Shown piece by piece: positions 8,002 to 47,715 of a DNA stretch of 64,000 bases. The notes beneath the pieces were generated by a model, which searched no databases, was not told where the DNA came from, and was given only the letters and a program-made list of their open reading frames with translations. The DNA comes from Giardia intestinalis. Taxonomy: Eukaryota. The stretch lies in the NCBI GenBank assembly GCA_000002435.2, contig CM018789.1; one strand, written 5' to 3'. Each line of letters starts with the position of its first letter. Position 1 is the first letter of the stretch. A program made the translations under genes and the position numbers.

Positions 8002-8014
8002 TGGATGCTATAGC

Positions 8015-19584: not shown

Positions 19585-19591
19585 AGAGTTG

Positions 19592-19598: not shown

Positions 19599-19604
19599 TC
19601 CTGC

Positions 19605-23361: not shown

Positions 23362-23417
23362 GAGAATTTGATCAATTTTTGACCTGAAATTATACGAATT
23401 GAAAATGAAAGAGAGGG

Positions 23418-24707
23418 ATGCCCCATGAAACCTCTAGACATTCGCACAGCAAAGGTCACGACGAATCTACTAAAGAGCGCCGCCACCGGCACCGGCATCG
23501 AAGCAGTTCTGAAGCCGCTTCAGAAAAACAGCAGTCTGACAATGCCTCAGGGACGCTGGTCCACCAAGCGGCTACCGATTCTAAAAGCGAATCTGGTCCT
23601 GCATGTGAAAACTGCTCACTGAGCGCATCACCATCAGGAATGTATTGTTTAGCATGTGACCTTCTCTTGTGCCAAACATGCGATCGTATGGTGCACGCAC
23701 CCTTAGCACTATCCAAGCATGATAGGCGTTCCTTCGAAGAGGCTGCTCTCCGTCGGAAGGCCTGCAGGTTCCACGCAGACCAACAGATTTCCCATTTTTG
23801 TCTACACTGTAACACATTTCTCTGCAAAGTTTGTCTAGATGAAGGATTGCACCAAATATCTCCTCATTTTGTTGATACGTTAGATGACGCTATTCAGAAA
23901 ACGACTAGGGGACTTCTGAGTCTTGTTAACGGTCCCCTTAGGCAGCGCTATGAAACTCTACAGCATGAAGTTGTACGCATAGAAGGACTCATGCACAAAG
24001 TCCGCACTGCTGCTGGGGAGATAGAAGCCCAGGTCCGTGAGCATTACGAGGGTGTGCTAGCTAGACTTGCTCGTTCAGAGAAGGAAAAGTTAGCCCTCTG
24101 TCAGAGTGATTTAACGACCGTCAAAAGTATGATGAAGCAGATAGATGACGTCGAGCACTATGTCGCAGTCGACCATCATAGAAAAAACCCTATAGTCCTT
24201 CTTTCCCAAGCAGGAACGATCAGTGAGAGTGTCCGATCTATACTTGCACGCAAATTATGTGATGCAATCTCTGTTACTGAGGAGAGCATTAGGCCTACCG
24301 ACCTTCCTCGCGAGTCTACTGTAGGTATCTCTAGAGAGATCCGAGAAGCCAGTGGAGATCCGTGTATATCCAAATTGAATATCCCAGATGGGATTACATC
24401 GAAGTGCACCGCGTGTCAGAACAATCTAAGTACACTGTTATCAGAAGCAGAGCAAGAAATCCATCACTGGAAAGCTCTCGTGGAACAATATGCCTTCGAA
24501 TTGGCCGCGTGGGACATGACCTGCTCTCGTTGCGGTCAGCATTGCCTTCCAGAGACAATTAACTCTCCTTGCACACTTCCTAATAAGCCTCCACGTAGGG
24601 AAGACAGAGGATTAGGAGAGGAGCTTTGTAGTAACGGGTCTCTGTTCCAAGAGGATTCAGATAGCCATTCGCGTAGACACTTCTTTGTCCGCTCAGAGGA
24701 TCATTAA
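23418..24707 (+). CDS. B-box-type zinc finger plus coiled-coil protein (TRIM-like without RING), 429 aa
   Basis: H/R-rich N-terminus, then two Cys/His clusters (CENCSLSASPSGMYCLACDLLLCQTCDRMVH and CRFHADQQISHFCLHCNTFLCKVCLDEGLH) with B-box spacing. A predicted coiled coil follows. Confidence 0.5.
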   Translation: MPHETSRHSHSKGHDESTKERRHRHRHRSSSEAASEKQQSDNASGTLVHQAATDSKSESGPACENCSLSASPSGMYCLACDLLLCQTCDRMVHAPLALSKHDRRSFEEAALRRKACRFHADQQISHFCLHCNTFLCKVCLDEGLHQISPHFVDTLDDAIQKTTRGLLSLVNGPLRQRYETLQHEVVRIEGLMHKVRTAAGEIEAQVREHYEGVLARLARSEKEKLALCQSDLTTVKSMMKQIDDVEHYVAVDHHRKNPIVLLSQAGTISESVRSILARKLCDAISVTEESIRPTDLPRESTVGISREIREASGDPCISKLNIPDGITSKCTACQNNLSTLLSEAEQEIHHWKALVEQYAFELAAWDMTCSRCGQHCLPETINSPCTLPNKPPRREDRGLGEELCSNGSLFQEDSDSHSRRHFFVRSEDH

Positions 24708-24727
24708 CTTCTTGCAAAGATAGTATC

Positions 24728-24734
24728 AGTAAAT
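24728..24734 (+). terminator. Polyadenylation signal AGTAAAT about 20 nt after the B-box gene stop
   Basis: AGTRAAY match downstream of TAA at 24705-24707. Confidence 0.45.
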
Positions 24735-24788
24735 TATTTCGTGGTAACCATTTCCCTGAGCCGGGTGCAGGAAAAATTCAAAAATAAA

Positions 24789-27700: not shown

Positions 27701-28073
27701 ACCGCAATTGGACTTTTCCAGTATTTGCAATAGCGGCATCGAAATAGACATTCTTCAGCCTATATTCTCAGGTCTCAATTCCCAATTTACACGATTTAGT
27801 AATATAGCAGGTAATAATAAGCTTCCTTTGTATGAAGGATTTCTCACTACCCATTTTGAAAACTTCTTTAATTTCCTACCTCGGCAAATTTTTGGAGAAG
27901 TTCCTACTTTCCAGCATTCTTCGTCATCGTTTAAATTTACAGCTCTTCAAGCTTCTATTAGGATGCTTAATTTACAATATGGCGATGAATTTTCCCAGTT
28001 TCTGATAAAAGAGATAAATGATACGTCTGGTAGTTCCTTATTGCATACCACGCTCTCTGGTTACTCTATATAG
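24789..28073 (+). CDS. Karyopherin/importin-beta family protein (exportin-like), about 1094 aa. Start moved from the track's GTG at 24741 to the ATG at 24789
   Basis: N-terminus MSLTEQLLVTLLEQTLSNSQEMVSSATEQILLHRRNNDFLGISFLVSANPQVSSKIRSAAAIQFSND fits the importin-beta N-terminal domain pattern. The rest is a long helical-repeat-like protein. A-rich initiator aaaaataaaATG. Confidence 0.5.
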   Translation: MSLTEQLLVTLLEQTLSNSQEMVSSATEQILLHRRNNDFLGISFLVSANPQVSSKIRSAAAIQFSNDIATKVQKLDGQMLVNISLKIVQTVVEAADSGALIVVRQMLESLKTILEFFYMSFNLHPTINPAVFAGDLYQLIFSLIDNSSVSKTDVCIQMVTILLTCMSSESLKDIYLKISVDFFDRCLNQLLQYLCSIEGEITNYVTPPFIEHVFACLNSFLTYSTVQSLTSLKSFSSMIGTVCQLLEKIGIGIAGPEVRNAKDYALQILIQLSITARLVGRCISPETEQSYLLVWNENEERIGKLLLGQFCLCPDYDLWEDHSSLDSLFRLSCRLIETNRGVPYNPKAYNLLVSNGKDIIQAIIAMLYNAGDLRLGQFEENDLLVIDCLKPCLDFLSSLTATSRELLELVNADMHMRLNSIINNDTAFLDTPEGQVNFFVGIILLRRGLSDDDTNYKGMVIFASLINYTKLNPIVFEELSKLIISITTEENSYISDFNEIDTEYTGDIEALLQKTVAQGIDAIKAGLDFKAQLVYILGCLYLLPTTSFFQCRMLSGIMARCVRHDLINRVNQRHLLLRSLELIATSQENSAAGGMVTFCRVAFPGLGPDVGAEVLSMFLRLPVIQNVFSNYNRMDPKLRKTAEMICETVNLVVTNVDTVSISLEECVCSFVVGFLQKDIRASQGCFQLLNCLLRKSSSLSSSSQNAYDYSYGPWRTDLIELLIHYLDSFYQTPGDFIFSNASHVEDMLAEALPYLIIQTQRFHMAYKNSVTQGTPEQQIEKLNEIYTPFFTLINKLLSPMNSAILLSVGCFILTRVMSLVALESNNVCLTVLQHSTQKLIELVSNLPTVCQGLMTHNLTPDLKRCMLVSISMAFFTLLQITDIHGMAENLLSTIAPHNLKIMIFISAWSIADNEGNPFIPLRAWMAHLVCCLSKIFVTLTQKDPTFLSVVVPNFAWAYSLCKMSHSPVVTAPQLDFSSICNSGIEIDILQPIFSGLNSQFTRFSNIAGNNKLPLYEGFLTTHFENFFNFLPRQIFGEVPTFQHSSSSFKFTALQASIRMLNLQYGDEFSQFLIKEINDTSGSSLLHTTLSGYSI

Positions 28074-28489
28074 CGTTTATGTTAAGATATTTCCCGTCTG
28101 AGATTAGCGTATGGACAGATCGACTGATTAGTTAATGCAAAAGATCCATTTTACCCATCGATTGCTTTTGATAATCTAGATTACTTGGTCCTCACCCATA
28201 GGTCTGGCCACAGTCAGCGAGTAAACCTGCTTTTCTGGGTCTGTGTGCCGGGCGTGTGCATCTCTTTTGTTATCTTTGCCTGTCTTGCTTCCTCTCGCCC
28301 GGTTACAGCAAGGCATCCAACAGCTGTGCAGCTAGCCCATTGTTTGCTGAGTGTTGCAGATCTCATGAAGAGACGTGTTCTATAGATGCAGACTAAGAGT
28401 ATTCTTCAAAAGTAGTCGTCACGGAAAATAAAACTGATGACGACTGTCGATTGCAGATTTTACCCCCTTATTCCAACAATAGCAGAGAA

Positions 28490-29520
28490 CATCCTTGGTG
28501 TGCTGCGCCGCTGCGCCTGCCTAGATGCGGCCCGGAGAGCTCCCAGACAAGCCGCGCTCCTTTGGCCGTGCCCGGAGACGAGTGCTGGCCGCGGACGGCG
28601 CAGCAAGGGGATCCCCGCTATCGGCACACGAGGAGCCCGGCGCCTTCCTCGGTCGCTCCGTGGGTGTGTGCGTCCAGGGCCCTGGCCTTCTCGCGGACTC
28701 TCTGGTCTACCCGTGGCGCCTCTCCTTGGTCTTCCTTCGTGGTGGGTGAAGCTCGGGTCGCCGTCTTTTTGGATGCTTCCGTCTGTCAGGGGCTGCCATC
28801 GGGCTCTCCGCTGGCCGCTCCTCGGTGTCCGGTCAGCTGTGGCCCGGGCCGCGCTCCCACAGTCGCGGTCACCTGGGTCCCGTAGCGGGCCGGCTGGTTG
28901 GTGAGGCAGGGGTATGGGGCGGTGAGGGCTGGAGGAGCTCCTGGTGGAGACCGGGGGGCGGTGTCTGTATGTGCCCCTAAGCTTCCAGTGAGCTACTTCG
29001 GTGGTGGATGAGGTGATCGCAGTTGTGGCGGCCGGGCTCTGGTCGGGGGCTGTGTCTGCTCTCCAGCCCGCGCTGCACGAGACACAGGCCCAGGCACCGA
29101 TGACCGCACCGGGCTCCTGGTCGTCCCTCTGCAGGAGTAGAGGGGAGCCCCTGCCTGCTGTCACAACCACCCGCCCTCAGAGGGCCAGGATTGGGCGGGC
29201 TATCCGTGCGGCCTCTAAGTGCACAGCAGGCGGCCCAGCTCTGGTGCACCGCACAGGAGAGGATCTAGTGGCGGCTAACGATAGCGCAAGAACCCTAGCC
29301 CGGCCGCCCGCTTCCTGTCGAGGACACCGGGCGGAGAAGGCTGGGGCAGAGGGCGGCGGTCGCGCCACTCTCAGACGGCACGGGCCTCTTGGATCCGGGC
29401 AGCCGCGAGCTCGAGAACCAGTTGGCAAACACGGCACCCAGACGGCCGGCTGCTCCCCTGGCGCATACTACAGGGCAGAGCTGCGACGAGGCCTCGGAGG
29501 GCGGATGGATATTAGCCGAC
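28490..29520. other. About 1.0-1.1 kb extremely GC-rich island with no credible ORF, lying 3' of the VSP gene
   Basis: Composition is visibly shifted (one 60-nt line counted 43/60 G+C). Stop-poor frames on both strands give only R/P/G/A low-complexity translations, e.g. 28460-29170(-). No conserved rRNA, tRNA or protein motifs recognised. Confidence 0.5.
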
Positions 29521-29522
29521 AC

Positions 29523-29537
29523 ATTTACTACCTAAGT
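29523..29537 (-). terminator. VSP-specific extended polyadenylation signal ACTTAGGTAGTAAAT, 4 nt after the VSP stop
   Basis: Reverse complement of atttactacctaagt equals ACTYAGRTAGTRAAY, the conserved 3' element reported for Giardia vsp genes. It follows ...CRGKA-TAG-ATGT. Confidence 0.8.
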
Positions 29538-29541
29538 ACAT

Positions 29542-31197
29542 CTACGCTTTGCCTCTGCAGATGAACCACCAGCAGAGGAAGCCGACGAGCCCTCCGACGA
29601 CGACGATGGCTGCGACGGAGATGCCAGCGATGGCGCCCGTGGAGAGCCCGCTCTTGTTCGTGCTTCCGCCATTGTTAGCGCCGTCTGTTTTGATATAGCA
29701 GGTGACAGGGCCACCATTGCCACCAGTTGGAGGGGCACAGCTTACGCAATTAGGTATACCCTGAATGTTACCGCTTGTTTCAGAACACTTTTTACATCCT
29801 TTTCCAGCGTCAAGATAGTATCCGGGGAAGCACTCCGAACACTGCTGTGGAGAAGAACCTGCTGTACATTTTGAGCACCCGTCCGGACACGCTGGGCAGG
29901 AGCCTTGGTTATCTGCTGCTTGCCCATTGGCGCATGTTGTGCACTTTCCTTGCGAAGCTGTGGTGCATAGCTTGTCACCTGGGTACGTTGTCGACTGATA
30001 GCATCCGCCCGATTCCTTAAAGTACGCATCCTTACAAGAAGTGCACGTTCCATCCTGCCCCGGATTGCATCCTGCAATTGTCCTCTGAGTTATTGGCACA
30101 CAGACGCCGTCCACCGGGGCGAATCCGGCCTTGCACTTGCTGCAGTACTTCGAGCCCCCAACGACGGCCGTGCACTGGCCAGCCTCGCAGTTCTCTGCGT
30201 ACCTTCCCGTGCACTCTGGGATGCATGTGCCGGTGGCTCCACCGTTGCCCTTGCTCAGCACAGACCCGGGATAGCAGGCCGTACACGATGTGGCTTCTGC
30301 ATTACCATTGCACTCTGCACATGTGCTATGGCAGGAGGCACAGACACTAATGCCATCAGCACTACGGTCAGAATAGGTTCCAGCAGGGCACTTTTCTAAG
30401 CACGCGTTCCCCAGGGGGCTGAGCCACTTGATACCGCAATCTGAGCAAACAAGGGCCAGCTCTGTTTGTGCAGAGGAAGCCGTGGAGGAGCACTTTTTGC
30501 AGTCCGCGATGCCGTGTGTTGCGTCGCTGCATGAGAGGCACATCTTCTTCGAGCCATTAGAGTCCGTGACCTCCTTGGCGAAGTGCGTCTTATCAGATGT
30601 ACAGGCAGAGGCCGATACGCACACCCCCGAGCGGGCAGCAGCATTCGTCACCTTCAGATAGTTGTCTCCGCTGCAGCTAAGGCACTTATCGTCTTCACTC
30701 GTATTGGCGCCGCTGACGCACTCCTTGCAGCTGGAGTGGCACCCCGGCGTGGCGGCGGGGCAGGTGCCGTCTGCCTGTGGCTTTCCTGTGGCGCAGTCCG
30801 CGCACTTGTTTGCCTCGTTGCACCTTCTGCAGTTAGGGTCGGGGCAAACGAAGCATGCATTTCCTGCAGTATTAGGCTTTTCATTTTTACCGCAGGCCTT
30901 GCACACCAGGGCCGTGGGGTCGGTGCTGTCGGCGTAGTGGTCGTGGGCCCCCGTGCACTCGGCGTCCGTGACGCAGGCCCCGTCCTTCAGGTACTTCTTG
31001 TTGCTGGGGTCGTTGGGGTCGCATTTGGTGCATTTTTTCCCAGTTGAATCGCATTCAGCGCAACCATCGATCGATGGACTGCATGCATCAGCCAGTGCGA
31101 CTGCAAAAATCAAACCAATTCCTACCAACATTGAGGCCAGGAGCTGGCACAGCACCGCTCTGGTTTGCATTAAGAGGCGCACGGGATCCTGCTTCAT
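29542..31197 (-). CDS. vsp: Variant-specific surface protein (VSP), Cys-rich type I membrane protein
   Basis: Numerous CXXC motifs, a GGCY motif (KESGGCYQ), a C-terminal TM segment and the invariant cytoplasmic tail CRGKA-stop. The track ORF starts at a TTG (31293). In-frame ATGs lie at 31197 (MKQDPVRLL...), 31170 (MQTRAVLCQLLAS...) and 31131 (MLVGIGLIFAVALADA, a classic short signal peptide). The true start is one of these. Confidence 0.9.
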   Translation of the reverse strand: MKQDPVRLLMQTRAVLCQLLASMLVGIGLIFAVALADACSPSIDGCAECDSTGKKCTKCDPNDPSNKKYLKDGACVTDAECTGAHDHYADSTDPTALVCKACGKNEKPNTAGNACFVCPDPNCRRCNEANKCADCATGKPQADGTCPAATPGCHSSCKECVSGANTSEDDKCLSCSGDNYLKVTNAAARSGVCVSASACTSDKTHFAKEVTDSNGSKKMCLSCSDATHGIADCKKCSSTASSAQTELALVCSDCGIKWLSPLGNACLEKCPAGTYSDRSADGISVCASCHSTCAECNGNAEATSCTACYPGSVLSKGNGGATGTCIPECTGRYAENCEAGQCTAVVGGSKYCSKCKAGFAPVDGVCVPITQRTIAGCNPGQDGTCTSCKDAYFKESGGCYQSTTYPGDKLCTTASQGKCTTCANGQAADNQGSCPACPDGCSKCTAGSSPQQCSECFPGYYLDAGKGCKKCSETSGNIQGIPNCVSCAPPTGGNGGPVTCYIKTDGANNGGSTNKSGLSTGAIAGISVAAIVVVGGLVGFLCWWFICRGKA

Positions 31198-32148
31198 GTC
31201 ACGGAATTCAGTGGAGCACAGCGGCCAACGGAAGCGAGGGCACATCCTCAAGCTACACCGGAGACCCGTTAATGCAGCATCCGTCCTCAGCAAGCATGAC
31301 TGAGGAAGCCCAGCACTGGCTTTCCTTGCTGTGGGAAGGCATAAGTGTATACATAGACAATGAGTGCATCCATTGCTACATTAACCCAACTGGCGCTTGT
31401 GGCCCTTGACACCCATAGCTATCGTATCCTGCACCTGGCAGACTGCCCGAGTGACCATCGTGGGGGACACAGCGATCGTGATGCTCATGGAGTGGTACAG
31501 AGCTGAATATTAGAGATGGTATTGGTACATCCTGGTTCGTCCACTTCAACCAAGCGGTAGGTGATGCTCTGTACTTCCTAGTCGGAAGAGGTAGTCAGTT
31601 CTGACTTGAGACTCTCCAGCCTTTCGCGGTCCAAATTGCCAAGTTGCATCCTCTTTACTCAGACTTGAATAGTCTCTGAAAGAGTGACATTAAAGGTGGT
31701 GCTACCAAGCTCATTATCTATGCTTCATACAAATACCCTAGGGTAAGCATTAGGCTTTTACAGCAGGAGTAAGTGCAACGGTTTTCATCGGTCACGCTCT
31801 CTTCTAATTCTAACTGTGTAAAGATTGGTATTAATTAAAAGAGCTGTTGAGGGAAACTTTATTATCCTAAAGGGATAAGGAACTACACAAAATGAAGCAC
31901 TCTATTAGAGCAGAAATGCTCGACTATAAAAAGAAGTACATCGATAATAGATTGAGGTTCTCACCATTGACATTTTTCCCCTGTGCATAAGCACTCGCTG
32001 TCACAGTAATTGATCTGTAAATTTCTGCTTTATAACACAAAGCAAGGAAGCAGTTTTGTGAACACCTCATCCGATGTCTAGGCTCTTCATGCTAGACACA
32101 TTGATAACGAGATACCGATCGAAAGAGAAACCAATCCACGATGGAGGC
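31198..32148. other. About 950-bp gene-free region upstream of the VSP and downstream of TatD, which is unusually long for this compact genome
   Basis: No ORF of 60 aa or more that is not an artefact, and no RNA gene motifs seen. It contains a 33-aa ATG ORF at about 31893-31994. Confidence 0.4.
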
Positions 32149-33171
32149 TCATTCTAATACGTTATTATACGCAGGTGTCACAACATCCTCTAAATTAAAT
32201 AGTCTTCTGGAGTTTTCTGCTGTTATTCTTCTCACAACCGATGTTTTCTCCGAGAGCGATAGGGGATTAGGAGAACAGTTTTCGAAGGGATGAGTCGTGA
32301 TTGCTGCGAGAACCTCCGCAACTGCGTTGATGTGGGCAGGCTCTGTTCGGCCTTTAACAAAGCATGGACACTGCAGAGCACAATCACCACATTTCTTATC
32401 ATAATTGCAGGACTTAACTACTTGCCTAAAATGCTCCTTGGTTAATCCAGATAAATGAGAATAGCTAGCATGCGTCGGCTTGACTTCGCACCAAGGGCAA
32501 TCTGTTTCCAAGTGTATTCTACTCAAAGGAATGTTTCTCACAACCGACAAATTATCAGCGGTTTTGAGAGAACACCCGTTGATCCCAATATCAAATCCAA
32601 GGGCCAGGATACGGTTGCACAGATCCAGATCTCCATCAAAGCTATGCACTACGCCTTTTAGCCGGGGCTCCTTCTGTTTATAGTCCGCTAATATTTCTAG
32701 GAAATCAGTTCCTGCGTCCCTGCAATGCAAGAAGAGAGGTAGTGATGGCTGTTTGCTAAAGATATCCAATTGGAGCCTGAATGCCAGCTTTTGAATCTCC
32801 TTACCGGCAAAATGCAGACGAGCATAGTCTAATCCTAGCTCTCCATATGCGCGGACATAAACTGGGAGATTGCCACCGCAAACCAGCTGTTTTAAAACCT
32901 CCAGCGATGGCTTTGGAGAAAGATCTTCAGTCACCAGTTCTGCGGCACGAGTAGGGTGATACCCTATGGTGCATGAGAGTAGTGGCCACTTGTTCATGAG
33001 AGTTGCTGCAGCATTGTACTCTTCTAGATTGCCACAAGTCACAATCATGTGTTGAACGCCATACACCCTGGCTCTCTCTAACACATCTCCAAGATCTCGC
33101 CGATGTTTCTGAGATCCATTGTAGACTCCAGAATAAACATCGTCAAGTAAATTCGCCCCTATGTCTATCAT
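32149..33171 (-). CDS. TatD-family metal-dependent deoxyribonuclease, 340 aa
   Basis: N-terminal MIDIGANL and the TatD-like blocks YGVQHMIVTCG, LHCRDAG, GVVHSFDG, IGINGCSLKT and ETDCPWCE. ATG at 33169-33171 verified. Confidence 0.75.
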   Translation of the reverse strand: MIDIGANLLDDVYSGVYNGSQKHRRDLGDVLERARVYGVQHMIVTCGNLEEYNAAATLMNKWPLLSCTIGYHPTRAAELVTEDLSPKPSLEVLKQLVCGGNLPVYVRAYGELGLDYARLHFAGKEIQKLAFRLQLDIFSKQPSLPLFLHCRDAGTDFLEILADYKQKEPRLKGVVHSFDGDLDLCNRILALGFDIGINGCSLKTADNLSVVRNIPLSRIHLETDCPWCEVKPTHASYSHLSGLTKEHFRQVVKSCNYDKKCGDCALQCPCFVKGRTEPAHINAVAEVLAAITTHPFENCSPNPLSLSEKTSVVRRITAENSRRLFNLEDVVTPAYNNVLE

Positions 33172-33247
33172 GCTTAAGCTGCGCTTTTATTTCTATTTCT
33201 AAGGGCTTAAAATCTAAAGATCAGAAATTAAAAAACTTAAGACAGAA

Positions 33248-36200
33248 ATGGCCAGTAAGCGAGTGTTTATCTCACACTTAGACACGGCACCAGCCAGAGC
33301 ATGCTCGCAAGTTTTTCGAGCCTTTGGGTGGGAGGTCTATGGCACCATTCTGGATTCGGACGCAGCCCTTCCTACTCCATGCGATGCAACTGAAATTATA
33401 CCTTCTCGCTCACAGGATTCGGAAGCATTTGCGCGCGGGATTTTATCCTGCGCAGCGATAATATATGACCTTTTGGCCCCCGATGAAGCTATAGCAGCAC
33501 TAGAGCTAGTTGCTCTATCTCCAAACAAGCGGAAGTTCATCTGCCTTTCTTCATTTTTGACATGGTGCCGTACAGAGTTACCTCCGCGACAGCTGGAAGA
33601 CAAAGAGGAGTCGGTTTTGGAAGAAGACCTTCCAGATGAGAAGGAGCTTGAACCCGATGAGGTGGTTGAGCTATATCGAGCTGCCCATAAAAAGGCTCCC
33701 TTTTGGGTGCTCAATAAGATAAAGAAGAGAGAGGAGGAAGAACGTCGTGCCCGTGAAGAAGAAGAACAAGAAGAGCAAGAGGAGCAAGAGAATCCTGAGG
33801 AGCCGGAAGAAGAGTATGAATATGAAGAAGTAGAAGAAGAATACGATGATGAGGACGACGAAGCGGTACCTGAGGATGATAACGAGGACCATCAGGAAGA
33901 GAGTGGCGAGGAAGACGAGGATAACGGAGATAACGAGGATAATGAAGTCGTAGAAGACACCACCAAACGGCGACGCTTTCGAATAGTGCGTAAAAGGGTT
34001 CCTAAAAAGAAGCCTCTAGAAATGCCAGTAGAAGAATCTGAACACGAGGATAGGATAGAGCAGGGACCAGACGAGGAGCTTCAGGAGCCAGATGATGCAG
34101 AGCCAGAAGAAGAGTATGAGTACGAGGAGGAGTGGAGCGAATCGGAGGAGCCGGTAGAAGAGAACTCTGAAGAACGTGAAGAGCGGTTGCTTCAGCTCAA
34201 GAAATATGGTATCTCTGAATCTGATCACGAGCGTCGTCGTCCTCATCCGGATTTTCGGATCCTCCTGACTACAGAAAAGGATATTGCCAAACGCCTCTCA
34301 AGCAGAGAAAATCTAGAGGGCGCTATAGTTATCCCGGGGCTAATTTATGGTTACGGAGAAACATCTTTAGTCCCCCTTTATAGGAGCATATACGAGGGAA
34401 AGCTCACTCAGATACCACTTTACTTTGGGGGGCATACACGTTCAATTCCAACAGTTTATGCCTTAGACCTTGCACTTCTTGTCCACAGCCTTGTCATAGA
34501 TGTGTGTCCAGACAAGGAACAGCCGTATGTGTTCGCAGTTGAACGGCAAATATGCACGTCCAAGCAGCTGGCAGAGGCCATGGGTCAAAAGTTGCTTTTA
34601 CCTGATCCTCTTCGAGATAAACTTGCAAAGGACATGGATGAGCGCCTTCGAACTACAAAACCTAAGCCTCTTACCAAGCAGACTTTCAGAGAATATGTTA
34701 AGATTCGTGATGCTCCACAATCTTTGCCAAACTATATTAGAGAAGTCGATAAAGAAGAGACACGGCTTGGTGACTCTATCCTAGAATTAACGGTTGATTC
34801 TCCGATGATTTTGGGATTCGCCTCCAACGACTTACTAGGAGGGAAGTTTCCTCTGTTTGCTAGGTCTGGATTTATTGATAACATTGAGCTGTCGTACTCT
34901 GAGTTTCTTGCCGCATGGGGGCTCAAGCCTGTTCGAATATTCATTCAGAAAGACCCTGATACGTCCATGGAGCTTGCTGACAAGCTTGCAATGGTGCTCA
35001 CAAAGTACCTGAGCTTGGATAGCAGAGATGATCGTCGTACCAGCTCTGCATATGTTAAGGATCTTGCTGATAAGATATCCACGGGAAAATTAACAAAAGA
35101 TGAGGTCATCTCTACGTCACGGATAAAGATTATCGACGGAATGTCCTATACACTGTCTACATTATCTAATCTTTTCCACGATCTGGCAATGGATTATCGT
35201 ACCCGTCAGTATGGCTGGATCTTAATTGGTCTTCCTCTAGGGATGTTGCCTGAAGATGTGTTTGGTCGCCCGGCGATTATAGATAAATATAAAGAGTATG
35301 CAGATGTGGGTCTTCTACCGCCTAAGTCAGTCAAGCATGAAGAAGGTGAAGGGGAAGACGTTGAGCCTGAAGAGGAAAATAGTGACGGGGAAGAGGAGTT
35401 GGAAGAGGAGGATGTAGAGGTGGATGAAAGTGATAGAATAGAAAAGATACGTGAGCGCATATTGCTCCCATACACTGCTCCTGCACACCCCTTTACACGA
35501 GGAAGAGTAGGAAGGGAGCACCTCAAGGAAGGTCCTAGGAATAGTCTCGACTTTTATGATAGTAACGTTTCTATTGAACACCCTGATGGAATACGCATTC
35601 CATGGCCAGAGTACATTATCGACTTGCCAAAGCTGGATAGATACGGTGCATCTCAGGACGAGCTGTCTGCTCTGGCAATTATTGAGCGCTTCTGTGAATA
35701 TTGCGTCGAGGTTAACGGAGAGCGAAAGAAGAAAAGCCTGGTAGAAGATACTGAGACACCAGAAGAAGCAAATGAGGAAGATGAAGGAAGGAAAAAGCGT
35801 AAACGTAAGGTAAAACCAGAGCCCCCAACTGAGCATTACCATACGACTGAGCTCACACGACATGAAGCAGAGGTGGAAGCATGGCATAAGGCTGAAGAAG
35901 CTGCAGCGGATATTTATCGACGAATGGAGCACGAACGTCTTAAGCATGTTCGACGACAATGGATAAAGGCCGTAAAGAAGCAATGCATTAAAAAGATAAA
36001 TAAGCTAGCAGAGAAGGGCGAGCCCGGTATTGTTCCATATGATTCGGCAAACTATACGTGGATAGAAGACTTTAATCTTGTAGGTCTTGATCCGCGTTTG
36101 GATCTTGACGTTATAAAGATTCCAAAAAAGGTCGCTTCTGAGTCAGATGAAGTAGAGGACAACCAAGCGGTTGATAATGAACAAGATGAGAATACGCATT

Positions 36201-37036
36201 CGGGAAGTTATACGGACGAAAATGGAGAGCAGCGTAAGGCTCCTCCCTTGATTAACCCAGATGATTATGATTTAGGCATTGAAGACGAAGAGAAGTATGA
36301 GCAATTGCGGCAGCAGAAGCTTGAGAAGATGAAACAAAACCAATTGCGGAAAGAAGAGAAGAAACGAAAGATTGAGGCTGGCGAGGAGGTCTCCGAAGAC
36401 GAGCCTACTGAAGAGGAGGAGGAGTTTGATGAAACAGGCCGTCGAAAGCGTACAACTCCCAAACCAAAGCCGTTTAAAGACGCACCAAAGGTCCCCATTA
36501 ATTACCAAGACATCCCTCTACCAGAGCACCATCATCGTGGATTTGCATGGCTTATTGAGTCATTAACAACGATCAAAGAGGTCCCTTATGGCGTATCGAA
36601 TATATTCTCTCCGTACTTTAACTCGTCGAGGTACACTTCCTTTGAAACTCTTTGTCAGGCTATAATGAGCTTTGTTGGTCCAAGCAGGGGATTCGGCAAA
36701 ACGAGGGAAGAGAGAAAGCAACAAGAGGAGGTTATAAAGCGACAGGAAGTCATTAGACGCCAGTTATTAGAAGAAAACCTCCTGAGGAAGGCCGAGGAAC
36801 ATAGGATAATAGAGGAGAAACGAAAACAAGATCTTTACAACATCCGTGAGGAACTTATCAGCAACGAAGAGCGTCGAATCAAAGACCTTTCTATCCCAAT
36901 CAGGAAGTATCTTACACAAACAGTCATGAAAGACTTAATTGACGGACTTGTGGAGGTGTCTAAACTCAGACCCAATGACCCCGTTCGTTACTTAGGGGAG
37001 TTCTTGATGGAGCGGTCGGTCAAAGACATAGAATAG
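33248..37036 (+). CDS. Adenylate kinase 7 (AK7)-like flagellar protein with a degenerate P-loop, long acidic/coiled-coil insertions and a C-terminal Dpy-30 motif, 1262 aa
   Basis: N-terminal block (KRVFISHLDT, AAIIYDLL, DEAIAALELVALS, KRKFICLSSFLTW, RRRPHPDF, IPTVYALDLALLV) parallels the AK7 N-domain as I recall it. GLKPVRIFIQKDPDTSMELADKLA aligns to AK7 [25 protein letters not shown], but the Walker A GxxxxGK[ST] is lost. GWILIGLP aligns to GYILDGFP with the catalytic Asp replaced. C-terminal IRKYLTQTVMKDLIDGLVEVSKLRPNDPVRYLGEFLMERS is a Dpy-30/RIIa-type motif. Long E-rich tracts separate these blocks. Confidence 0.6.
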   Translation: MASKRVFISHLDTAPARACSQVFRAFGWEVYGTILDSDAALPTPCDATEIIPSRSQDSEAFARGILSCAAIIYDLLAPDEAIAALELVALSPNKRKFICLSSFLTWCRTELPPRQLEDKEESVLEEDLPDEKELEPDEVVELYRAAHKKAPFWVLNKIKKREEEERRAREEEEQEEQEEQENPEEPEEEYEYEEVEEEYDDEDDEAVPEDDNEDHQEESGEEDEDNGDNEDNEVVEDTTKRRRFRIVRKRVPKKKPLEMPVEESEHEDRIEQGPDEELQEPDDAEPEEEYEYEEEWSESEEPVEENSEEREERLLQLKKYGISESDHERRRPHPDFRILLTTEKDIAKRLSSRENLEGAIVIPGLIYGYGETSLVPLYRSIYEGKLTQIPLYFGGHTRSIPTVYALDLALLVHSLVIDVCPDKEQPYVFAVERQICTSKQLAEAMGQKLLLPDPLRDKLAKDMDERLRTTKPKPLTKQTFREYVKIRDAPQSLPNYIREVDKEETRLGDSILELTVDSPMILGFASNDLLGGKFPLFARSGFIDNIELSYSEFLAAWGLKPVRIFIQKDPDTSMELADKLAMVLTKYLSLDSRDDRRTSSAYVKDLADKISTGKLTKDEVISTSRIKIIDGMSYTLSTLSNLFHDLAMDYRTRQYGWILIGLPLGMLPEDVFGRPAIIDKYKEYADVGLLPPKSVKHEEGEGEDVEPEEENSDGEEELEEEDVEVDESDRIEKIRERILLPYTAPAHPFTRGRVGREHLKEGPRNSLDFYDSNVSIEHPDGIRIPWPEYIIDLPKLDRYGASQDELSALAIIERFCEYCVEVNGERKKKSLVEDTETPEEANEEDEGRKKRKRKVKPEPPTEHYHTTELTRHEAEVEAWHKAEEAAADIYRRMEHERLKHVRRQWIKAVKKQCIKKINKLAEKGEPGIVPYDSANYTWIEDFNLVGLDPRLDLDVIKIPKKVASESDEVEDNQAVDNEQDENTHSGSYTDENGEQRKAPPLINPDDYDLGIEDEEKYEQLRQQKLEKMKQNQLRKEEKKRKIEAGEEVSEDEPTEEEEEFDETGRRKRTTPKPKPFKDAPKVPINYQDIPLPEHHHRGFAWLIESLTTIKEVPYGVSNIFSPYFNSSRYTSFETLCQAIMSFVGPSRGFGKTREERKQQEEVIKRQEVIRRQLLEENLLRKAEEHRIIEEKRKQDLYNIREELISNEERRIKDLSIPIRKYLTQTVMKDLIDGLVEVSKLRPNDPVRYLGEFLMERSVKDIE

Positions 37037-37050
37037 CTTCTGCCACTGAT

Positions 37051-40000
37051 CTAACTTTTATACAGGATTTTTTTCAGCTCTTTGGCAAGATCTGCATTAT
37101 TGTTAGATATATCTACGAATACATCAATAAATGCTTCCTTGTATGCCTCTCTGAGGTCGAATACGAGACGCTTTATCAACCTATTATCCCTAGTAGTCTT
37201 AAACTCAAAGATCCCGTAATCAAGGGCTTTATGCAGTAATGAGCGGAGGACTGCGTGGTGCAGGGATAAATCTATGAGGGTAGTCACAGGAGCTGGTGCC
37301 AGTTGAGACATTAAGATGTTTCCTTGTGCGATTACTCTCCCTAACACGTATTGGATGAGAACCTTTGACAGCAGAACAGACTCTGTTTGCAAGATGCTGA
37401 AGATGGGGGCCACCAGTCCACTAACATCTGTGAAGTGGAGCATATGCTGTGCAGATGCTGCGGTGCCGCTGGCTAGAAAGCTTTGGATGTGCAGAATAAA
37501 AAGAGACCCGTTGGAAAGGGCTAGTTGTACGCTGCTATCAGAAAGATAGACATACTCTGGGGAGTATTGTAGGTCTAAGGTAGATTGCAGTGTTATAACA
37601 ATCTTGGTGTCAACCACTCTAAAAAGCAGAATGTGATGCTCAAACGTGACTCTATTTTTCAGTAAAATGAATGAGTTGCAATCACTGCTTGAAACGGAAT
37701 CAGTCTCCTTTATGGCGAACTCGCGTCCGCTGTCTTTTTTGGCTCTCACTGATAGGATCATATTGCTTTCCCCACATGCGATCGGCACTAGAAGATGCGG
37801 ATTGAATAGGCGTGAATGTGTGCTAATAATTGAGAGTGTTGATGCTGTAGAATAGCAAATAAGATGAGCCGTTCCGTTAGATAAAACGAGCATAAAAACG
37901 TCCTTTGAGAGAATCAAATAGTCCATTGGAGACCCGTCTAACAAAAGATTAGCAGTAGATGGGCAAGTATTTGAAGATATAAGGGATGGAGAAAAATAGT
38001 CTGAAGGAACAAGCCTCGTGACAGTAAACTCTTCTTGTGGCAGTACAAGTCTGTTCAGCAGTCCAGTCTCTTCAGGATATGTCAATAAGTCTGGGCTTGC
38101 TTTAACGAAGGCGTTAGGAGCGGGATGTGCGGTAGGTAAAACAGGTAGTGCGTTGAGATCTTTGATAGTGGTATCAGCAACTGCTATGTGAGGGTTGGCG
38201 GTAGATTTAAAATCTGCCTGCCCATTTTGTGGATCACCTGATCGTGCTAATAGATTAGTTGTTTGTTCTAATAGTTCATTTGAGCGGTCTCCAAAAAACT
38301 CAGCTATCTCCTCTTCCTCTGGTAACAAAGCCCATAACTGATCTCTATCTGTATGATTTGAAGCCCCAATTCTAATGTCTTCCGATAAGGGCTCTTCTGC
38401 TGATGGAAATTCATAGAAACTATATTCATCTTTAACAGAAACCTTGACATATGCAGTCCTTGGGAGATGCAAACTTGGGACATGCTCACTCTCATCTTGA
38501 TCGCTAGCAACGCATTCTGAAAGCATCGCTTTGTCGGGATCTAGCTCGGGTGAGTGTTGCGCCATATCAAAGCCAGTGGTTTTATTTGTATACATACTCA
38601 CCCCATGCTGTGATGAGTCATCAGACATCTCATATACCGAGTGCTGAATTGTTGCTGTAGCTTTTTTTACGCTAAGGATCCGTATTATGTCCACTATTGG
38701 GAGTTCTATAGAATAGATTGTACGAACGTTTTTAAGAATGCGAGTAGTGTGTGTGGCACTCTCTTTGCCTTCCTCAGAAAAAGTCTCCTGACCTGCTATA
38801 TCTGCGACTCCAATGACATAGAGCGTAAACACAGAACGTGCACGATCACTCGTGTTGCCCAAGGTTGATGTCCATGTCATCTTTTCGGCGAGAAGCGGCA
38901 GTTTAGCGGAGAAGATACGATGGTGATGCAGTGGCACTAGGTATATGTGAACGTATCCCCGGGTATCTGCGCAGGCCACGAGCTCAACTGTTGGCAACGC
39001 AAGAAATGCTTCCAGATCAACCCCACTATCCGATACAAATTTGTGATGAAGCTTATTATCAGATGGTAGCATGAATGACACGCAAGAAATGGCTGTGGCC
39101 ACAATGGGGTATCCGGTGTAGATTGTTAGCGGTATCTCCGAGAGCTTTGATGTGTCGGAGTATGCATTGAAACAACTGCGTGCTACAAGTCTGCAGACAG
39201 GAAGGTTCTTCTTAAAACATCTCAATGTATCGGACTGCTTAGCTATCTGCTTATCTATGGAGTATATCCCAAATGGAAAGACCACAGATCGTGGGGAGAT
39301 GGACAAATGCATTGTTGGAAAGCGAAATACAGATTGCACAGGTTCAAAAATGCTATTTCTATATTGCAATCTGGAGAAATAGAGCTCAGTAAGCGCAGTA
39401 TCACCGTTATCGACCTCAAAGCACTTTATAAAATTGGTTGCAAAATGGGGAGTTCTCCTGTCTCCATCTTCATACATCACTTCGCCACACACGATGAGCT
39501 TCTCCTTCTGAGGGGTTGTAGGGCGTGATGCTCTGATAAGTAATAAACTTTGGATTTTATTTATAAGTCCATCCTTGCTCTCCAACGGATTGACGCTACT
39601 AATGCAACACACACAGGAGTCTAAATCGGTGGATGTTATGTTTGCTATGGATAATGCTGACAAGCCTGACGCTAGTTTATGAACATCATCGTGAACAAGC
39701 ACTGAGTAGGCGTCCTTGGCAGATTGATCCTCCTTAAGCGTCACTGTGAAGACTATATGCTCACGCTTGTTGAAGGCGAGTACAAAGACACACGGTCTTA
39801 TTGCAGACCAGACAATATTATCAAACATATCCACAAAGAGCTTATCTCCTGACACGGTTGTGCACTCCTCATGTGACATGTGGGCGAGAAATTTGCAGGT
39901 GCGAGGGTGTGAGGAGGGATCTCGTGATTGAATGATGGTCAGTTCATAGAACAAGATCAAGTTGGAAGTGTATACAACCAAGTACCGCTCATCGGGGGAG

Positions 40001-40314
40001 CTCACCATACTAATAAGAGATTCGGAGCAATGCTGTTGATACTTCTTTAACTCCGGTCTAGGTAGCATCCTTATACACGTCTGCGGCACATAGTCATGCG
40101 TGCAGACGTATAATAATTGGTCAAGAACCCTTCTTTGATTCTCCTTAAACGAATTAAACTTGAATGTCAAGACCACTAACAGATTAGATTTAGGCAGAAC
40201 ACAGGCAGATGCAATTCTTTGATAAACTAGTTGCTCTGATGCTTGCCCCACACTTATGTTCAAGGGCGTGAAGATAGACGACAGAGGAAACTGACGGACG
40301 TTCGCTGAAAACAT
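37051..40314 (-). CDS. Hypothetical protein, 1087 aa
   Basis: Long ORF with verified ATG at 40312-40314 and no recognisable motifs. It is 14 bp convergent with the AK7-like gene. Confidence 0.55.
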   Translation of the reverse strand: MFSANVRQFPLSSIFTPLNISVGQASEQLVYQRIASACVLPKSNLLVVLTFKFNSFKENQRRVLDQLLYVCTHDYVPQTCIRMLPRPELKKYQQHCSESLISMVSSPDERYLVVYTSNLILFYELTIIQSRDPSSHPRTCKFLAHMSHEECTTVSGDKLFVDMFDNIVWSAIRPCVFVLAFNKREHIVFTVTLKEDQSAKDAYSVLVHDDVHKLASGLSALSIANITSTDLDSCVCCISSVNPLESKDGLINKIQSLLLIRASRPTTPQKEKLIVCGEVMYEDGDRRTPHFATNFIKCFEVDNGDTALTELYFSRLQYRNSIFEPVQSVFRFPTMHLSISPRSVVFPFGIYSIDKQIAKQSDTLRCFKKNLPVCRLVARSCFNAYSDTSKLSEIPLTIYTGYPIVATAISCVSFMLPSDNKLHHKFVSDSGVDLEAFLALPTVELVACADTRGYVHIYLVPLHHHRIFSAKLPLLAEKMTWTSTLGNTSDRARSVFTLYVIGVADIAGQETFSEEGKESATHTTRILKNVRTIYSIELPIVDIIRILSVKKATATIQHSVYEMSDDSSQHGVSMYTNKTTGFDMAQHSPELDPDKAMLSECVASDQDESEHVPSLHLPRTAYVKVSVKDEYSFYEFPSAEEPLSEDIRIGASNHTDRDQLWALLPEEEEIAEFFGDRSNELLEQTTNLLARSGDPQNGQADFKSTANPHIAVADTTIKDLNALPVLPTAHPAPNAFVKASPDLLTYPEETGLLNRLVLPQEEFTVTRLVPSDYFSPSLISSNTCPSTANLLLDGSPMDYLILSKDVFMLVLSNGTAHLICYSTASTLSIISTHSRLFNPHLLVPIACGESNMILSVRAKKDSGREFAIKETDSVSSSDCNSFILLKNRVTFEHHILLFRVVDTKIVITLQSTLDLQYSPEYVYLSDSSVQLALSNGSLFILHIQSFLASGTAASAQHMLHFTDVSGLVAPIFSILQTESVLLSKVLIQYVLGRVIAQGNILMSQLAPAPVTTLIDLSLHHAVLRSLLHKALDYGIFEFKTTRDNRLIKRLVFDLREAYKEAFIDVFVDISNNNADLAKELKKILYKS

Positions 40315-40365
40315 TTTTTAAGATTTATTAATTTTATTAATTTTTAGACGCGCATTGATAAGGAG

Positions 40366-41346
40366 CTAGATCGGTAAATCCACAATATATGGACTCGGAA
40401 CCTGGGCGGCTGAGAAATAGGTGATGAAAGATACTATCTCCGAGACCCTATCCACTTCAAGGATCATTTCTTTCGGCTCATTATGCACCAAAACAGTAAG
40501 ATTAATCTGACTATCGCCAGGAACCACCTTTATTAGCGCATCAAATGTGTATCCAGTGTTTTCAGATAGATCTGCATTTAAGAAAAGAATACCTCTGTGG
40601 TTGAGAAGTAGAATGGTGTCAGACTCCGGTGCCATTCGATCAAATTTGCGCACACTACCATGAAAGCATGCATATCCATACTGCTTGAGCGATGTCCCGA
40701 CAATATTAAAGTAGTGTTGGATGGCTTCATCCGGCGTTGGGGCTAGACCCTGTTCAATAATAGACGAAAACATGTGCTTGAACATTTTCTCCAAGCTCTT
40801 ATCATTGTATCTTACGAGGATATCACTGTTTATGAATCTTCCTGCAGAGGCTTGAACATATTTAGAGTAAAAATGTTTTTCCTTTATGTTGGGAATTGTC
40901 CCTGTTGTAATAATGTAATAAAATGCAGAGAAAAGTAATGAATATTCGTTGTTCACCCTCCAGATGTGTGTGATAATGGCTCTCTGCACTTGTTCCAGAA
41001 GAATCAGTCTGAACTTTTTATTTAGATGTTTAACCACTTCTGGCGTGGGGAAAATAGCAATTCGCAGAAAAATCGAGGGATTGCCGTGTAGAACAGAGTA
41101 GTAAGGCTGAGAGAGCGCTTCCATGCATTCGACAGAAGCTTTGGCTGTCCTTTTCAAGAGGACAAACGCGGGGGCGTAATCGTCAGGAATGTCCAGTTGT
41201 CGGCATAGGTCAGTAATTATATCAAATACTAAGCTGTTAGGACCAATCGAAGTATAAATAGGTCCGGTAATTGTGCCTACCCTCAAGGGAATAGTCATCA
41301 TTTTTTTTAGCTCTTTCAGTTGACAAACTATAGGCCTAACAGCCAT
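40366..41346 (-). CDS. Hypothetical protein, 326 aa
   Basis: ORF with verified ATG; no recognisable motifs. Confidence 0.5.
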   Translation of the reverse strand: MAVRPIVCQLKELKKMMTIPLRVGTITGPIYTSIGPNSLVFDIITDLCRQLDIPDDYAPAFVLLKRTAKASVECMEALSQPYYSVLHGNPSIFLRIAIFPTPEVVKHLNKKFRLILLEQVQRAIITHIWRVNNEYSLLFSAFYYIITTGTIPNIKEKHFYSKYVQASAGRFINSDILVRYNDKSLEKMFKHMFSSIIEQGLAPTPDEAIQHYFNIVGTSLKQYGYACFHGSVRKFDRMAPESDTILLLNHRGILFLNADLSENTGYTFDALIKVVPGDSQINLTVLVHNEPKEMILEVDRVSEIVSFITYFSAAQVPSPYIVDLPI

Positions 41347-41443
41347 CCTTCACCCTGTATGCGTAGCCCTTTGGACGTAGGGTGCCAAGGTGGTAACAAA
41401 ATCACTTCAAGACGATTTACTCTCCCATATTAGTGGAACACGG

Positions 41444-42604
41444 TCAGTAGAAGCCAATGCGCTTGCTGCCCACAGTCATATCCAGCGCATTATCTATTTG
41501 GTCGGCTTCTGGGTTGTCCCAGGCGGTGTTGACGCGCTCTGTGCCAGTTAAACAAACATCAGAGATGCCCATAAGGAGTCGCTTGAGCTGGGTGATAATC
41601 ATCTCTGCGCGTTCATGCTTTCTCTGGAGTAGATCTAGCTCATCACGCAGGATGTTGATGTCATCCGCCTTCTCCATTTGGGCCTGGTGATCGGTCTCCA
41701 TGGCGTTGCGAAGTATCTGGGTCTCCTCCTCTAGCTCATAGATTCTGCTCTTCAAGACTTCGTTTTCTTCATCTGCCCTTACAGCAGAAGTGTCAGACAC
41801 ACCCGACATCCCGCAGGCACGTAGCTTAGACTCCTTAACCTGTGACTCATGTATCTCAAGAACCTCATCATTTGCTGCAATGAGCTGCTCATTGAACTGA
41901 GCCAAGAGGGCGTCTTTCTCCTCTATCTCATTTTGGAGACGCTGTATCTCTTCCTCATGGATTCTCTTCATCGCTTTCTTTTCGGCTTCAAGGCGCTTCT
42001 GGTTAGCAAGGGAGTTTGCGAGCTCCTCTACAGAAAATTGCGCCGCCGTCGTTCTCTGCTCTATGGTAGTCTCATAAGCATGGATCTTCTTGTGCGCATT
42101 TTCTAGTTCTTCGCGGTACTGATCACACTGTGCACAGTGGTGCAATTTAGAAGACCCCAACGACGCTCTGTGGCTCGCTCTACCCTCCAGGATACTCTCT
42201 AGTTCCGCAATTCTGTCCAAGGCATTTGACAATTCCATGGCTAATGTTGCCCTGGCCTCCTCCGATTCTGCAATGCGCTGCTCAAGACGAGAAGAGGTTG
42301 CTAGCGCCTGAGATGCAAGGGCGTGATATTCACTGGATTTGGTTGCCAACTTTGCCTCTTGGCGGCTCAAAGACCTTCGGAGATGCGATTCTCGACGTTG
42401 TGCTGTAACCAGTTCGCCGTCAACAACGTTTCTGAGTTCTTCAGCGCTCGACTGTATAGAACGCGCAGCCGCTACGGCTTGCTCTGCAGCCAGGCGCGAG
42501 CGGTCGAGAGAATCATCGATGCGCTTCTGTTCCGTGACAAACTGCTCGTTATCGTTGTTCGAGGTCTCGGGGGAGTCCAAAGAAAGCAAGAGGTTGTCAC
42601 CCAT
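41444..42604 (-). CDS. Coiled-coil protein, about 387 aa. Start moved from the track's GTG at 42658 to the ATG at 42604
   Basis: Heptad-rich E/L/R/A sequence throughout; first in-frame ATG gives MGDNLLLSLDSPE.... Confidence 0.5.
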   Translation of the reverse strand: MGDNLLLSLDSPETSNNDNEQFVTEQKRIDDSLDRSRLAAEQAVAAARSIQSSAEELRNVVDGELVTAQRRESHLRRSLSRQEAKLATKSSEYHALASQALATSSRLEQRIAESEEARATLAMELSNALDRIAELESILEGRASHRASLGSSKLHHCAQCDQYREELENAHKKIHAYETTIEQRTTAAQFSVEELANSLANQKRLEAEKKAMKRIHEEEIQRLQNEIEEKDALLAQFNEQLIAANDEVLEIHESQVKESKLRACGMSGVSDTSAVRADEENEVLKSRIYELEEETQILRNAMETDHQAQMEKADDINILRDELDLLQRKHERAEMIITQLKRLLMGISDVCLTGTERVNTAWDNPEADQIDNALDMTVGSKRIGFY

Positions 42605-42677
42605 TTTTAAAAACACGCCTCGCCATTTTTTAGCTAACGCATTTTTGACAAAAAGCACAAATAGATTGGTTCACATA

Positions 42678-47540: not shown

Positions 47541-47715
47541 TCAGCACTGGCCCGTTTTATAAATTAAAATGACTTTAATGAATATTTTATGGATAGGCGG
47601 AAAAAGCATTTTTTTGATTTTCCGCAAGCGCCAGAAGGTGCAACCGGGGTGTATCCAAGCTTCAGAGTTCGTTTATTTACAAACAAAGTGGTAATAAGCC
47701 AACTACACAAAACAA

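Follow-up and report, generated by a model that had tools for sequence, protein, structure and literature searches.

A probable AK7 ortholog without adenylate kinase catalytic motifs in Giardia intestinalis and other diplomonads

AK7 is known as a subunit of radial spoke 3 (RS3) of the axoneme. The head of mouse RS3 consists of one AK9, two AK7 and two LRRC23 subunits, and its surface toward the central pair is strongly acidic. Cilia of AK7-null mice lose the RS3 head, the neck and ~10 dependent proteins. In bovine and other mammalian axonemes, the DPY30 domain of AK7 dimerizes with that of EFCAB5 or AK9, and the resulting dimer docks on CFAP91. Ak7A and Ak7B of Tetrahymena also behave as RS3 components. 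Recent axoneme structures portray RS3 as a metabolic hub where ATP is regenerated beside the dyneins by AK7 and AK9. Here we describe a gene in a 64,000-nucleotide stretch of the Giardia intestinalis genome (contig CM018789.1; termed the window) whose product is collinear with AK7 of mammals and ciliates (PDB 9D2F and 9FQR; Tetrahymena Ak7A and Ak7B) and has the same domain order.

Acidic loops and a conserved C-terminal docking module are common to the Giardia protein and to mammalian and ciliate AK7. The Giardia protein differs in its greater length, with ~540 additional residues that reflect acidic and helical inserts, and in the C-terminal half of its adenylate kinase core, which matches canonical AK7 so weakly that it is barely recognizable. 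It also lacks the Walker A motif, which is GPPxxGK[ST] in AK7, and the Asp residue of the nucleoside monophosphate (NMP) block, G[YF]xLDG[FY]P. AK7 is regarded as catalytically active in mammals and Tetrahymena, whereas the Giardia protein is predicted from its sequence to be inactive.

The gene is an open reading frame (ORF) of 1262 codons plus a stop, with an ATG start and no internal stop. An exact-sequence look-up revealed that the product is identical to XP_001704150.1 (UniProt A8BYL5) of G. intestinalis WB, whose database label is only "Dpy-30 motif-containing protein." In public data, 21 contigs encode the identical protein. Orthologs of similar length occur in three further G. duodenalis-type lineages, G. 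muris and Spironucleus, and synteny is conserved.

The original prediction, made from the letters of the window, assigned to this protein the AK7 domain order of N-domain, core, coiled coil and Dpy-30 motif, and we reproduced this order with independent profile methods. The top sequence matches in the PDB are the axonemal AK7 chains 9fqr_Xc (E = 1.2e-19) and 9d2f_D (E = 4.9e-18). These matches span both halves of the N-domain (AK7 residues 75-289) as well as the C-terminal strut and Dpy-30 domain (45 bits to AK7 residues 601-719), and a weak middle stretch pairs "lkpvrifiqkdpdtsm" with "llpikicilgppavgk." A hidden Markov model (HMM) of canonical AK7 was built from 84 AK7-family proteins, with diplomonads left out to avoid circularity, and three diplomonad proteins score 236-262 bits against it. 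In Spironucleus, one uninterrupted domain match extends over model positions 5-470 and places trPdc-Ki on GpPasGKs and GfVLinlP on GyVLDGfP. A domain over residues 290-707 of the G. muris protein also puts Walker A and GyVLDGfP on the degenerate positions. The alignment of the G. duodenalis protein ends exactly at strand beta-1 (VRIFIQ); thus, the placement of the later blocks depends on the G. muris protein, which is nearly identical, and on profile-profile alignment.

When a six-sequence diplomonad profile is compared with the canonical AK7 profile by hhalign, the match (probability 100%, E = 5.8e-61, 714 aligned columns) is collinear throughout, with diplomonad residues 1-1261 aligned to canonical positions 20-784. 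A MAFFT alignment of 74 sequences, including bird, ciliate and kinetoplastid AK7s, holds four core landmarks in register, namely the P-loop, the NMP block, strand beta-4 (PEYIIDL/PEFVVSL) and the LID motif (PTEHYH/AGTHFT). The Dpy-30 motif was said to have been kept, and it is the one feature that Pfam recognizes in the protein, with a score of 43.5 bits, well above the cutoff of 22. It is 72% identical to that of Spironucleus and is also matched by solved DPY30 chains (E ~7e-5). The AK7 N-domain, a collinear core, and the helical strut with its Dpy-30 domain are each present, which places the protein in the AK7 homology family. The PDB, HMM and hhalign matches contradict the possibility that it is unrelated to AK7 or adenylate kinases. 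Judged by these alignments, the gene is the diplomonad ortholog of AK7 and has the whole AK7 architecture.

The two strings that had been quoted as signs of a dead kinase are located as claimed, with PVRIFIQKDPDTSME at residues 561-575 and GWILIGLP at residues 656-663. Alignments to PDB chains and by HMM, hhalign and MAFFT agree that the Walker A position reads QKDPDTSM, such that no glycine is left in the loop. The Asp residue of the NMP block, which is present in 105 of 126 scored family representatives, is replaced by Ile; the two Giardia species have GWILIGLP here, and Spironucleus has GFVLINLP. Conservation in 75% or more of the sequences from outside the diplomonads marks out structural positions that are retained (G541, N545, E552, F553, L559, P561 and I564, and further on P570, R653, G656, L659, G661, P663 and P787) and catalytic positions that are changed (G568K, P569D, G573S, K574M and D660I). 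The arginines of the LID are less clearly placed. MAFFT puts the RR of the family on Ala-Ala (residues 885-886), with the next Tyr kept, and hhalign pairs RLKHVRRQ with RRl..yr. Pfam ADK gives no match to the Giardia protein at E values up to 10, and none to the G. muris or Spironucleus protein. The motif [GA]xxxxGK[ST] is absent from all six diplomonad orthologs; thus, no intact P-loop lies elsewhere in these proteins.

Such degeneracy could be an artifact, if the gene were a decaying pseudogene, if the locus were mis-assembled, or if an alignment error concealed an intact kinase. This possibility is a general one, to which the lack of a Pfam ADK match and the failure of the canonical HMM to extend past beta-1 in the G. 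duodenalis sequence by itself might lend some weight. However, the reading frame is uninterrupted, the protein recurs unchanged on 21 contigs, its orthologs are of similar length and in conserved synteny, and the ratio of nonsynonymous to synonymous substitution rates (dN/dS) is well below 1. In addition, the same register emerges from four independent methods of alignment, and none of the proteins carries a Walker A motif. These observations effectively refute an artifact, to which we assign almost no chance. The state of its motifs makes canonical ATP binding or phosphate transfer by the Giardia protein almost certainly impossible, and it would therefore be a pseudo-enzyme. By the same sequence evidence it is outside the adenylate kinase enzyme class (EC 2.7.4.3), because two defining features of that class were tested and both are missing, and it is inside the AK7 homology family.

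Residues 531-590, which include the former P-loop, are the most conserved part of the protein, with identities of 98% to another Giardia assemblage, 85% to G. muris and 53% to Spironucleus. The acidic inserts are only 12-58% identical in G. muris and Spironucleus. In comparisons with two other assemblages, dN is 0.007-0.015 for residues 531-590 versus 0.066-0.079 for the whole gene. Values of dN/dS are far below 1 everywhere, but these ratios are rough because dS has reached saturation (about 1-4, with no defined value for some segments); therefore, only contrasts in dN are used here. By these measures, the gene is not a relic and has been under strong purifying selection since the loss of its motifs. 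A homolog of an enzyme family that has lost key catalytic residues and is maintained by purifying selection corresponds to what is termed a pseudo-enzyme.

The peak of conservation around the former P-loop could mark a ligand site rather than a packing surface or interface. If so, the core might still bind or turn over nucleotide in a non-canonical way, for example as a sensor of nucleotide that relies on residues other than those of Walker A. The apparent retention of the alpha/beta core in predicted models is compatible with this proposal, and the HMM places a Lys of Spironucleus at the Walker Lys position, although with a one-residue deletion. However, Giardia has lost the two Walker glycines as well as the Lys, the Asp expected to serve Mg and NMP binding is Ile, and a pair of Asp residues in the loop (D569 and D571) would repel phosphate. 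Under the MAFFT register, which is uncertain here, the LID Arg positions are Ala-Ala, and the region is invisible to Pfam ADK. We therefore consider continued nucleotide use very unlikely. The loss of the ATP-binding loop, together with tight conservation of the protein, suggests instead that the lasting flagellar job of the protein is structural and not the making of ATP.

Structure prediction adds little to this picture. The AF2 model has a strand at residues 789-792, with a predicted local distance difference test (pLDDT) score of ~70, and the modeled core appears to retain an alpha/beta fold that resembles those of P-loop NTPases. A first AF2 run (residues 520-1150, 12-sequence alignment) had a mean pLDDT of 44.7 and was left out of the fold search. 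When the better model was compared with the PDB by using Foldseek, nothing was found at E ≤ 0.001. AK7 chains are at ranks 2, 7 and 15 (E = 0.19-0.66), which at most is consistent with AK7 homology.

The degenerate state is found in all sampled diplomonads, which comprise four G. duodenalis-type sequences, G. muris and Spironucleus salmonicida. Giardia and Spironucleus represent the two diplomonad subfamilies. By sequence, the nearest relatives outside the diplomonads come from two free-living fornicates, Kipferlia bialata and Aduncisulcus paluster, whose proteins match residues 319-690 with 155 and 99 bits, respectively. These two proteins, and the more distant ones of Blattamonas nauphoetae, Monocercomonoides exilis and Trimastix marina, have the same architecture as the Giardia protein. 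Unlike the Giardia protein, all five keep GxxxxGK[ST]. The P-loop and NMP block read GPPGSGKS and GFVLDGYP in Aduncisulcus, GRPGSGKT and GYVLDTMP in Kipferlia, GPPCSGKT and GYVFDGLV in Blattamonas, and GPPCCGKT and GYVLVCPA in Monocercomonoides, the last of which has lost the Asp that the other three retain. Because all sampled diplomonads are degenerate and these five metamonad relatives keep the P-loop, the sequences place the full loss on the diplomonad stem, later than the divergence from fornicates like Kipferlia and Aduncisulcus. In Monocercomonoides, Blattamonas and Kipferlia, an intact P-loop is combined with a partly degenerate NMP block. These apparently intermediate states suggest that, in the metamonad lineage, the AMP site was eroded stepwise before the ATP site.

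The protein had been called a paralog of AK7, which is probably incorrect. Each diplomonad yielded only one family member, which behaves as the ortholog of the canonical AK7-type proteins found in Kipferlia and Aduncisulcus. The word-indexed protein search behind this count is insensitive, and a second Giardia copy may exist; the search returned nine matches per query and missed most of the family, and 143 AK7 queries missed the Giardia protein itself.

When 1.84 billion representative proteins were searched exhaustively with a profile, 404 family members were found at E ≤ 1e-30. Our census of Walker A motifs is based on the top 150 matches of a profile that is half diplomonad, and the fraction of proteins lacking the Lys is perhaps somewhat inflated as a result. 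The P-loop could be aligned in 148 non-diplomonad representatives. It is canonical in 114, retains the Lys with other changes in four, and is partial in two, and the Lys is lost in the remaining 28 (19%), in three of these by a change from K to R. The Asp of the NMP block is also lost in 15 of 21 Lys-less proteins versus six of 104 that keep the Lys. Lys-less proteins are present in the kinetoplastids Trypanosoma brucei, T. vivax and Leishmania, the choanoflagellates Salpingoeca infusionum and Diaphanoeca grandis, the stramenopile Incisomonas, the metamonad Barthelona, the centipede Strigamia, and the dinoflagellate Durusdinium. Where such proteins bear a name, it is only "Dpy-30 motif" or hypothetical, and we found no description of a Lys-less AK7 class in the literature.

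The kinetoplastid "Dpy-30 motif containing proteins" (T. brucei Q586Q4 and those of T. vivax, Leishmania infantum and L. donovani) are a close parallel. They have the same architecture in 1233-1652 amino acids and the same uninformative annotation, and they likewise lack the Walker Lys (GPPFGRVP, GPPLSGSG or GPPLSGAE) and the NMP Asp (GYILENFP or GYILSDFP). Unlike the Giardia protein, they keep GPP and usually one glycine of the loop. Trypanosoma also has a canonical AK7-type "adenylate kinase" (T. congolense G0UZX5, with GPPLSGKT and GYVLDGFP); thus, the dead form there is a paralog. In Giardia, only the dead form was found. By comparison with these relatives, the diplomonad protein is the extreme case, with a glycine-free loop, invisibility to Pfam ADK, and the status of the only family member recovered. 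The implied singularity of a dead AK7 in Giardia is too strong, as ~19% of family representatives have also lost the Walker Lys. However, the suggestion that it had not been described stands, insofar as our literature search found no paper on Giardia AK7, on this accession or on a catalytically inactive AK7.

Exactly those modules that an RS3 role would require are conserved in the Giardia protein, from the N-domain and core fold to the strut and Dpy-30 domain, and its acidic loops are exaggerated. The protein is 23.1% Asp plus Glu, with a net charge of -105 over 1262 amino acids, compared with AK7-family medians of 17.9% and 735 amino acids. The claim of expansion by acidic and coiled-coil insertions is thereby borne out by length, composition and the inserts themselves. 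We consider it likely that the dead AK7 ortholog has been kept as a structural component of RS3 in Giardia flagella. In the arrangement we envision, its Dpy-30 domain would pair with the Dpy-30 domain of a partner protein, and this pair, with the preceding helix, would dock on an amphipathic helix in CFAP91, a backbone protein of the spoke. The spoke head would consist of the N-domain together with the dead core, and the expanded poly-Glu loops may provide the negative face that meets the central-pair projections. The earlier proposal of a dead kinase kept as a scaffold thus gains from the sequence constraint, from the RS3 loss in mouse, and from the docking of AK7 on CFAP91; its inactivity and flagellar location are presumed from sequence and by analogy with these systems. 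We found nothing relevant in the literature on CFAP91, CFAP61 or CFAP251 of Giardia.

Another Giardia Dpy-30 protein, GL50803_0027887 (UniProt A8B984), has been localized as a green fluorescent protein fusion to all four flagellar pairs (PMC13322205). Because mammalian AK7 docks as a DPY30 heterodimer, GL50803_0027887 is a candidate partner of the AK7-like protein.

A dead AK7 homolog might also have been repurposed away from RS3, and serve as a Dpy-30-docked scaffold in another microtubule structure of Giardia, such as the central-pair apparatus, the long cytoplasmic segments of the axonemes, the median body, or structures associated with the ventral disc. The Giardia protein has about 500 extra residues in diplomonad-specific inserts that lack a canonical AK7 counterpart and that could carry new interactions. 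Tetrahymena Ak7A has been reported with non-RS3 structures too, AK7 and AK9 were formerly assigned to the central pair from cross-linking data, and our literature search returned no localization, proteomic or functional datum for the Giardia protein, which is also absent from the atlas consulted. However, the helical strut and Dpy-30 domain, through which AK7 docks in RS3, belong to the best conserved parts of the protein, the surfaces of the N-domain and core that build the RS3 head are also conserved, and the acidic expansion fits the negative surface described for that head. Repurposing therefore appears unlikely, though it is the less improbable of the two alternative functions considered here.

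If the protein does reside in RS3 of Giardia, then the conserved function of AK7 is architectural. In mouse, the AK7 knockout loses the whole head and neck; thus, enzymatic and structural roles are inseparable there. Diplomonads would provide a natural separation-of-function allele, in which the architecture, the docking module and the fold of the active-site region are constrained while the chemistry is gone. Giardia RS3 would then lack AK7-based ATP regeneration, its eight flagella would buffer ATP by other means, and the view of RS3 as an ATP-regeneration hub would need to be qualified. Enzymes of glycolysis and of the arginine deiminase pathway are reportedly present in the Giardia flagellar proteome and might supply such buffering. 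The broader proposal behind these consequences, which we advance tentatively and rate at somewhat below even chances, is that AK7 kinase activity is dispensable for the conserved function of the protein and that the family is foremost a building block of the RS3 head whose catalytic site was lost many times independently. Such losses would have occurred on the diplomonad stem, in Barthelona, in kinetoplastid paralogs, in choanoflagellates, and in a stramenopile, a dinoflagellate and a centipede.

Pseudo-enzymes as building blocks of axonemes are unsurprising in themselves. The pseudophosphatase STYXL1 is already present in the RS3 stalk and, like the Pfam family Hydin_ADK (PF17213), reflects the same concept of an enzyme fold that persists as an axonemal module after catalytic loss. 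Both belong to folds or families different from that of the Giardia protein. Hydin_ADK gives weak matches in some AK7 relatives and no Pfam match in the Giardia protein. What is new is a pseudo-enzyme form of the RS3 protein AK7. There is also a gain for annotation, because the Lys-less "Dpy-30 motif" or hypothetical proteins, trypanosome and Leishmania ones included, can be named as AK7-like pseudo-kinases along with that of Giardia.

Table 1. Features of the AK7-like gene and protein (coordinates are those of the window)
Feature	Residues	Coordinates	Strand	Basis or remark
Complete AK7-family gene		33248..37036	+	ORF; exact look-up; collinear with canonical AK7
AK7 N-domain, first half, Rossmann-like	1-120	33248..33607	+	Canonical AK7 HMM, 61.9 bits; PDB AK7 alignment
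Acidic insert 1, poly-Glu/Asp with one basic patch	121-318	33608..34201	+	Composition
AK7 N-domain, second half	319-445	34202..34582	+	HMM, 121.3 bits; solved AK7 residues 173-289, 28 bits
Linker with diplomonad-specific insert	446-530	34583..34837	+	Gapped versus canonical AK7s
AK-like core, N-terminal half	531-690	34838..35317	+	
Former Walker A region, VRIFIQKDPDTSME	562-575	34931..34972	+	Alignments to AK7 V[RK]IxIxGPPxxGK[ST]
Degenerate NMP/Mg block, GWILIGLP	656-663	35213..35236	+	Aligned to AK7 G[YF]xLDG[FY]P
Acidic insert 2	691-735	35318..35452	+	Canonical AK7s have an acidic loop here too
Strand beta-4 equivalent, PEYIIDL	787-793	35606..35626	+	Aligned to AK7 P[DE]xV[IV]xL
Expanded charged C-terminal part of core region	831-1150	35738..36697	+	Alignments; AF2
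Possible LID vestige, PPTEHYHTTE	859-868	35822..35851	+	MAFFT and hhalign; AK7 v(a/e)GTH[YFW]
Coiled-coil/helical strut before Dpy-30	1151-1212	36698..36883	+	AK7 residues 601-680; HMM positions 548-640
Dpy-30 dimerization/docking domain	1218-1256	36899..37015	+	Pfam PF05186, E = 2.6e-11

The features in Table 1 differ in how well they are retained. In the first half of the N-domain, G. duodenalis has the motifs KRVFISHLD and LSSFLTWCRT, and the family-invariant S, W and T that align with the latter are retained in G. muris and Spironucleus. The second half contains RRRPHPDF, GLIYGYGET and IPTVYALDLA in G. duodenalis, and the invariant R, P, E, G-Y-G-G-E, P and D-L-A are retained in the other two species. 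The G. duodenalis row of the conserved-column alignment begins at residue 520, and N-domain columns were read from G. muris and Spironucleus. Acidic insert 1 is much longer than its equivalent in canonical AK7s and is 58% identical to G. muris and 26% identical to Spironucleus (with 47% gaps). The corresponding values for the linker are 75% and 45%. The N-terminal half of the core runs in the order pre-beta-1 helix, beta-1, former P-loop, alpha-1, NMP-like region and beta-3.

After the possible LID vestige, AF2 predicts a long helix at residues 864-922 (pLDDT 75-79), and the register downstream of the vestige is uncertain. The expanded part of the core region consists of diplomonad-specific inserts and helices, mostly without counterpart in canonical AK7s, and terminates in the conserved motif FVGPSRGFG (residues 1142-1150). 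The only GK[ST] tripeptide in the six diplomonad orthologs is found here, within GPSRGFGKT (residues 1144-1152). We considered this sequence as a displaced P-loop and rejected it. The five residues between its glycines are the wrong spacing, it corresponds to the "G.P.NY" motif that precedes the coiled coil throughout the family, and its GKT is missing in G. muris.

The upstream neighbor of the AK7-like gene is a divergent gene for a TatD-family DNase (32149..33171, minus strand; Pfam E = 2.7e-39). Only 76 bp separate it from the AK7-like start codon, so a very short bidirectional promoter region must be common to both genes. Downstream, a convergent ORF of 1087 amino acids without a Pfam match (37051..40314, minus strand) has its stop only 14 bp from the AK7-like stop, such that the 3' ends almost abut. 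Both arrangements are kept in another Giardia assemblage, with TatD upstream and an ORF of ~1085 amino acids downstream.

Further along the window, a gene for a 1627-amino-acid ankyrin and coiled-coil protein (53311..58194, minus strand) is 67% G+C with a strong AT skew. The window averages ~47% G+C, and the two similar giant genes for ankyrin/coiled-coil proteins beside it (42678..47540 and 47716..53253, both minus strand) are ~48%. Within the GC-rich block is a long antisense ORF (53542..57549, plus strand; 1335 amino acids), which is probably a by-product of composition. Only short tandem repeats (20-21 bp) were found. An Rfam scan of the whole window (1..64000) gave no family at gathering score; thus, the block is not ribosomal DNA. 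An ORF of 1626 amino acids (58299..63179, minus strand) has only a sub-threshold match to the CPSF A subunit/beta-propeller region (26.3 bits, cutoff 27).

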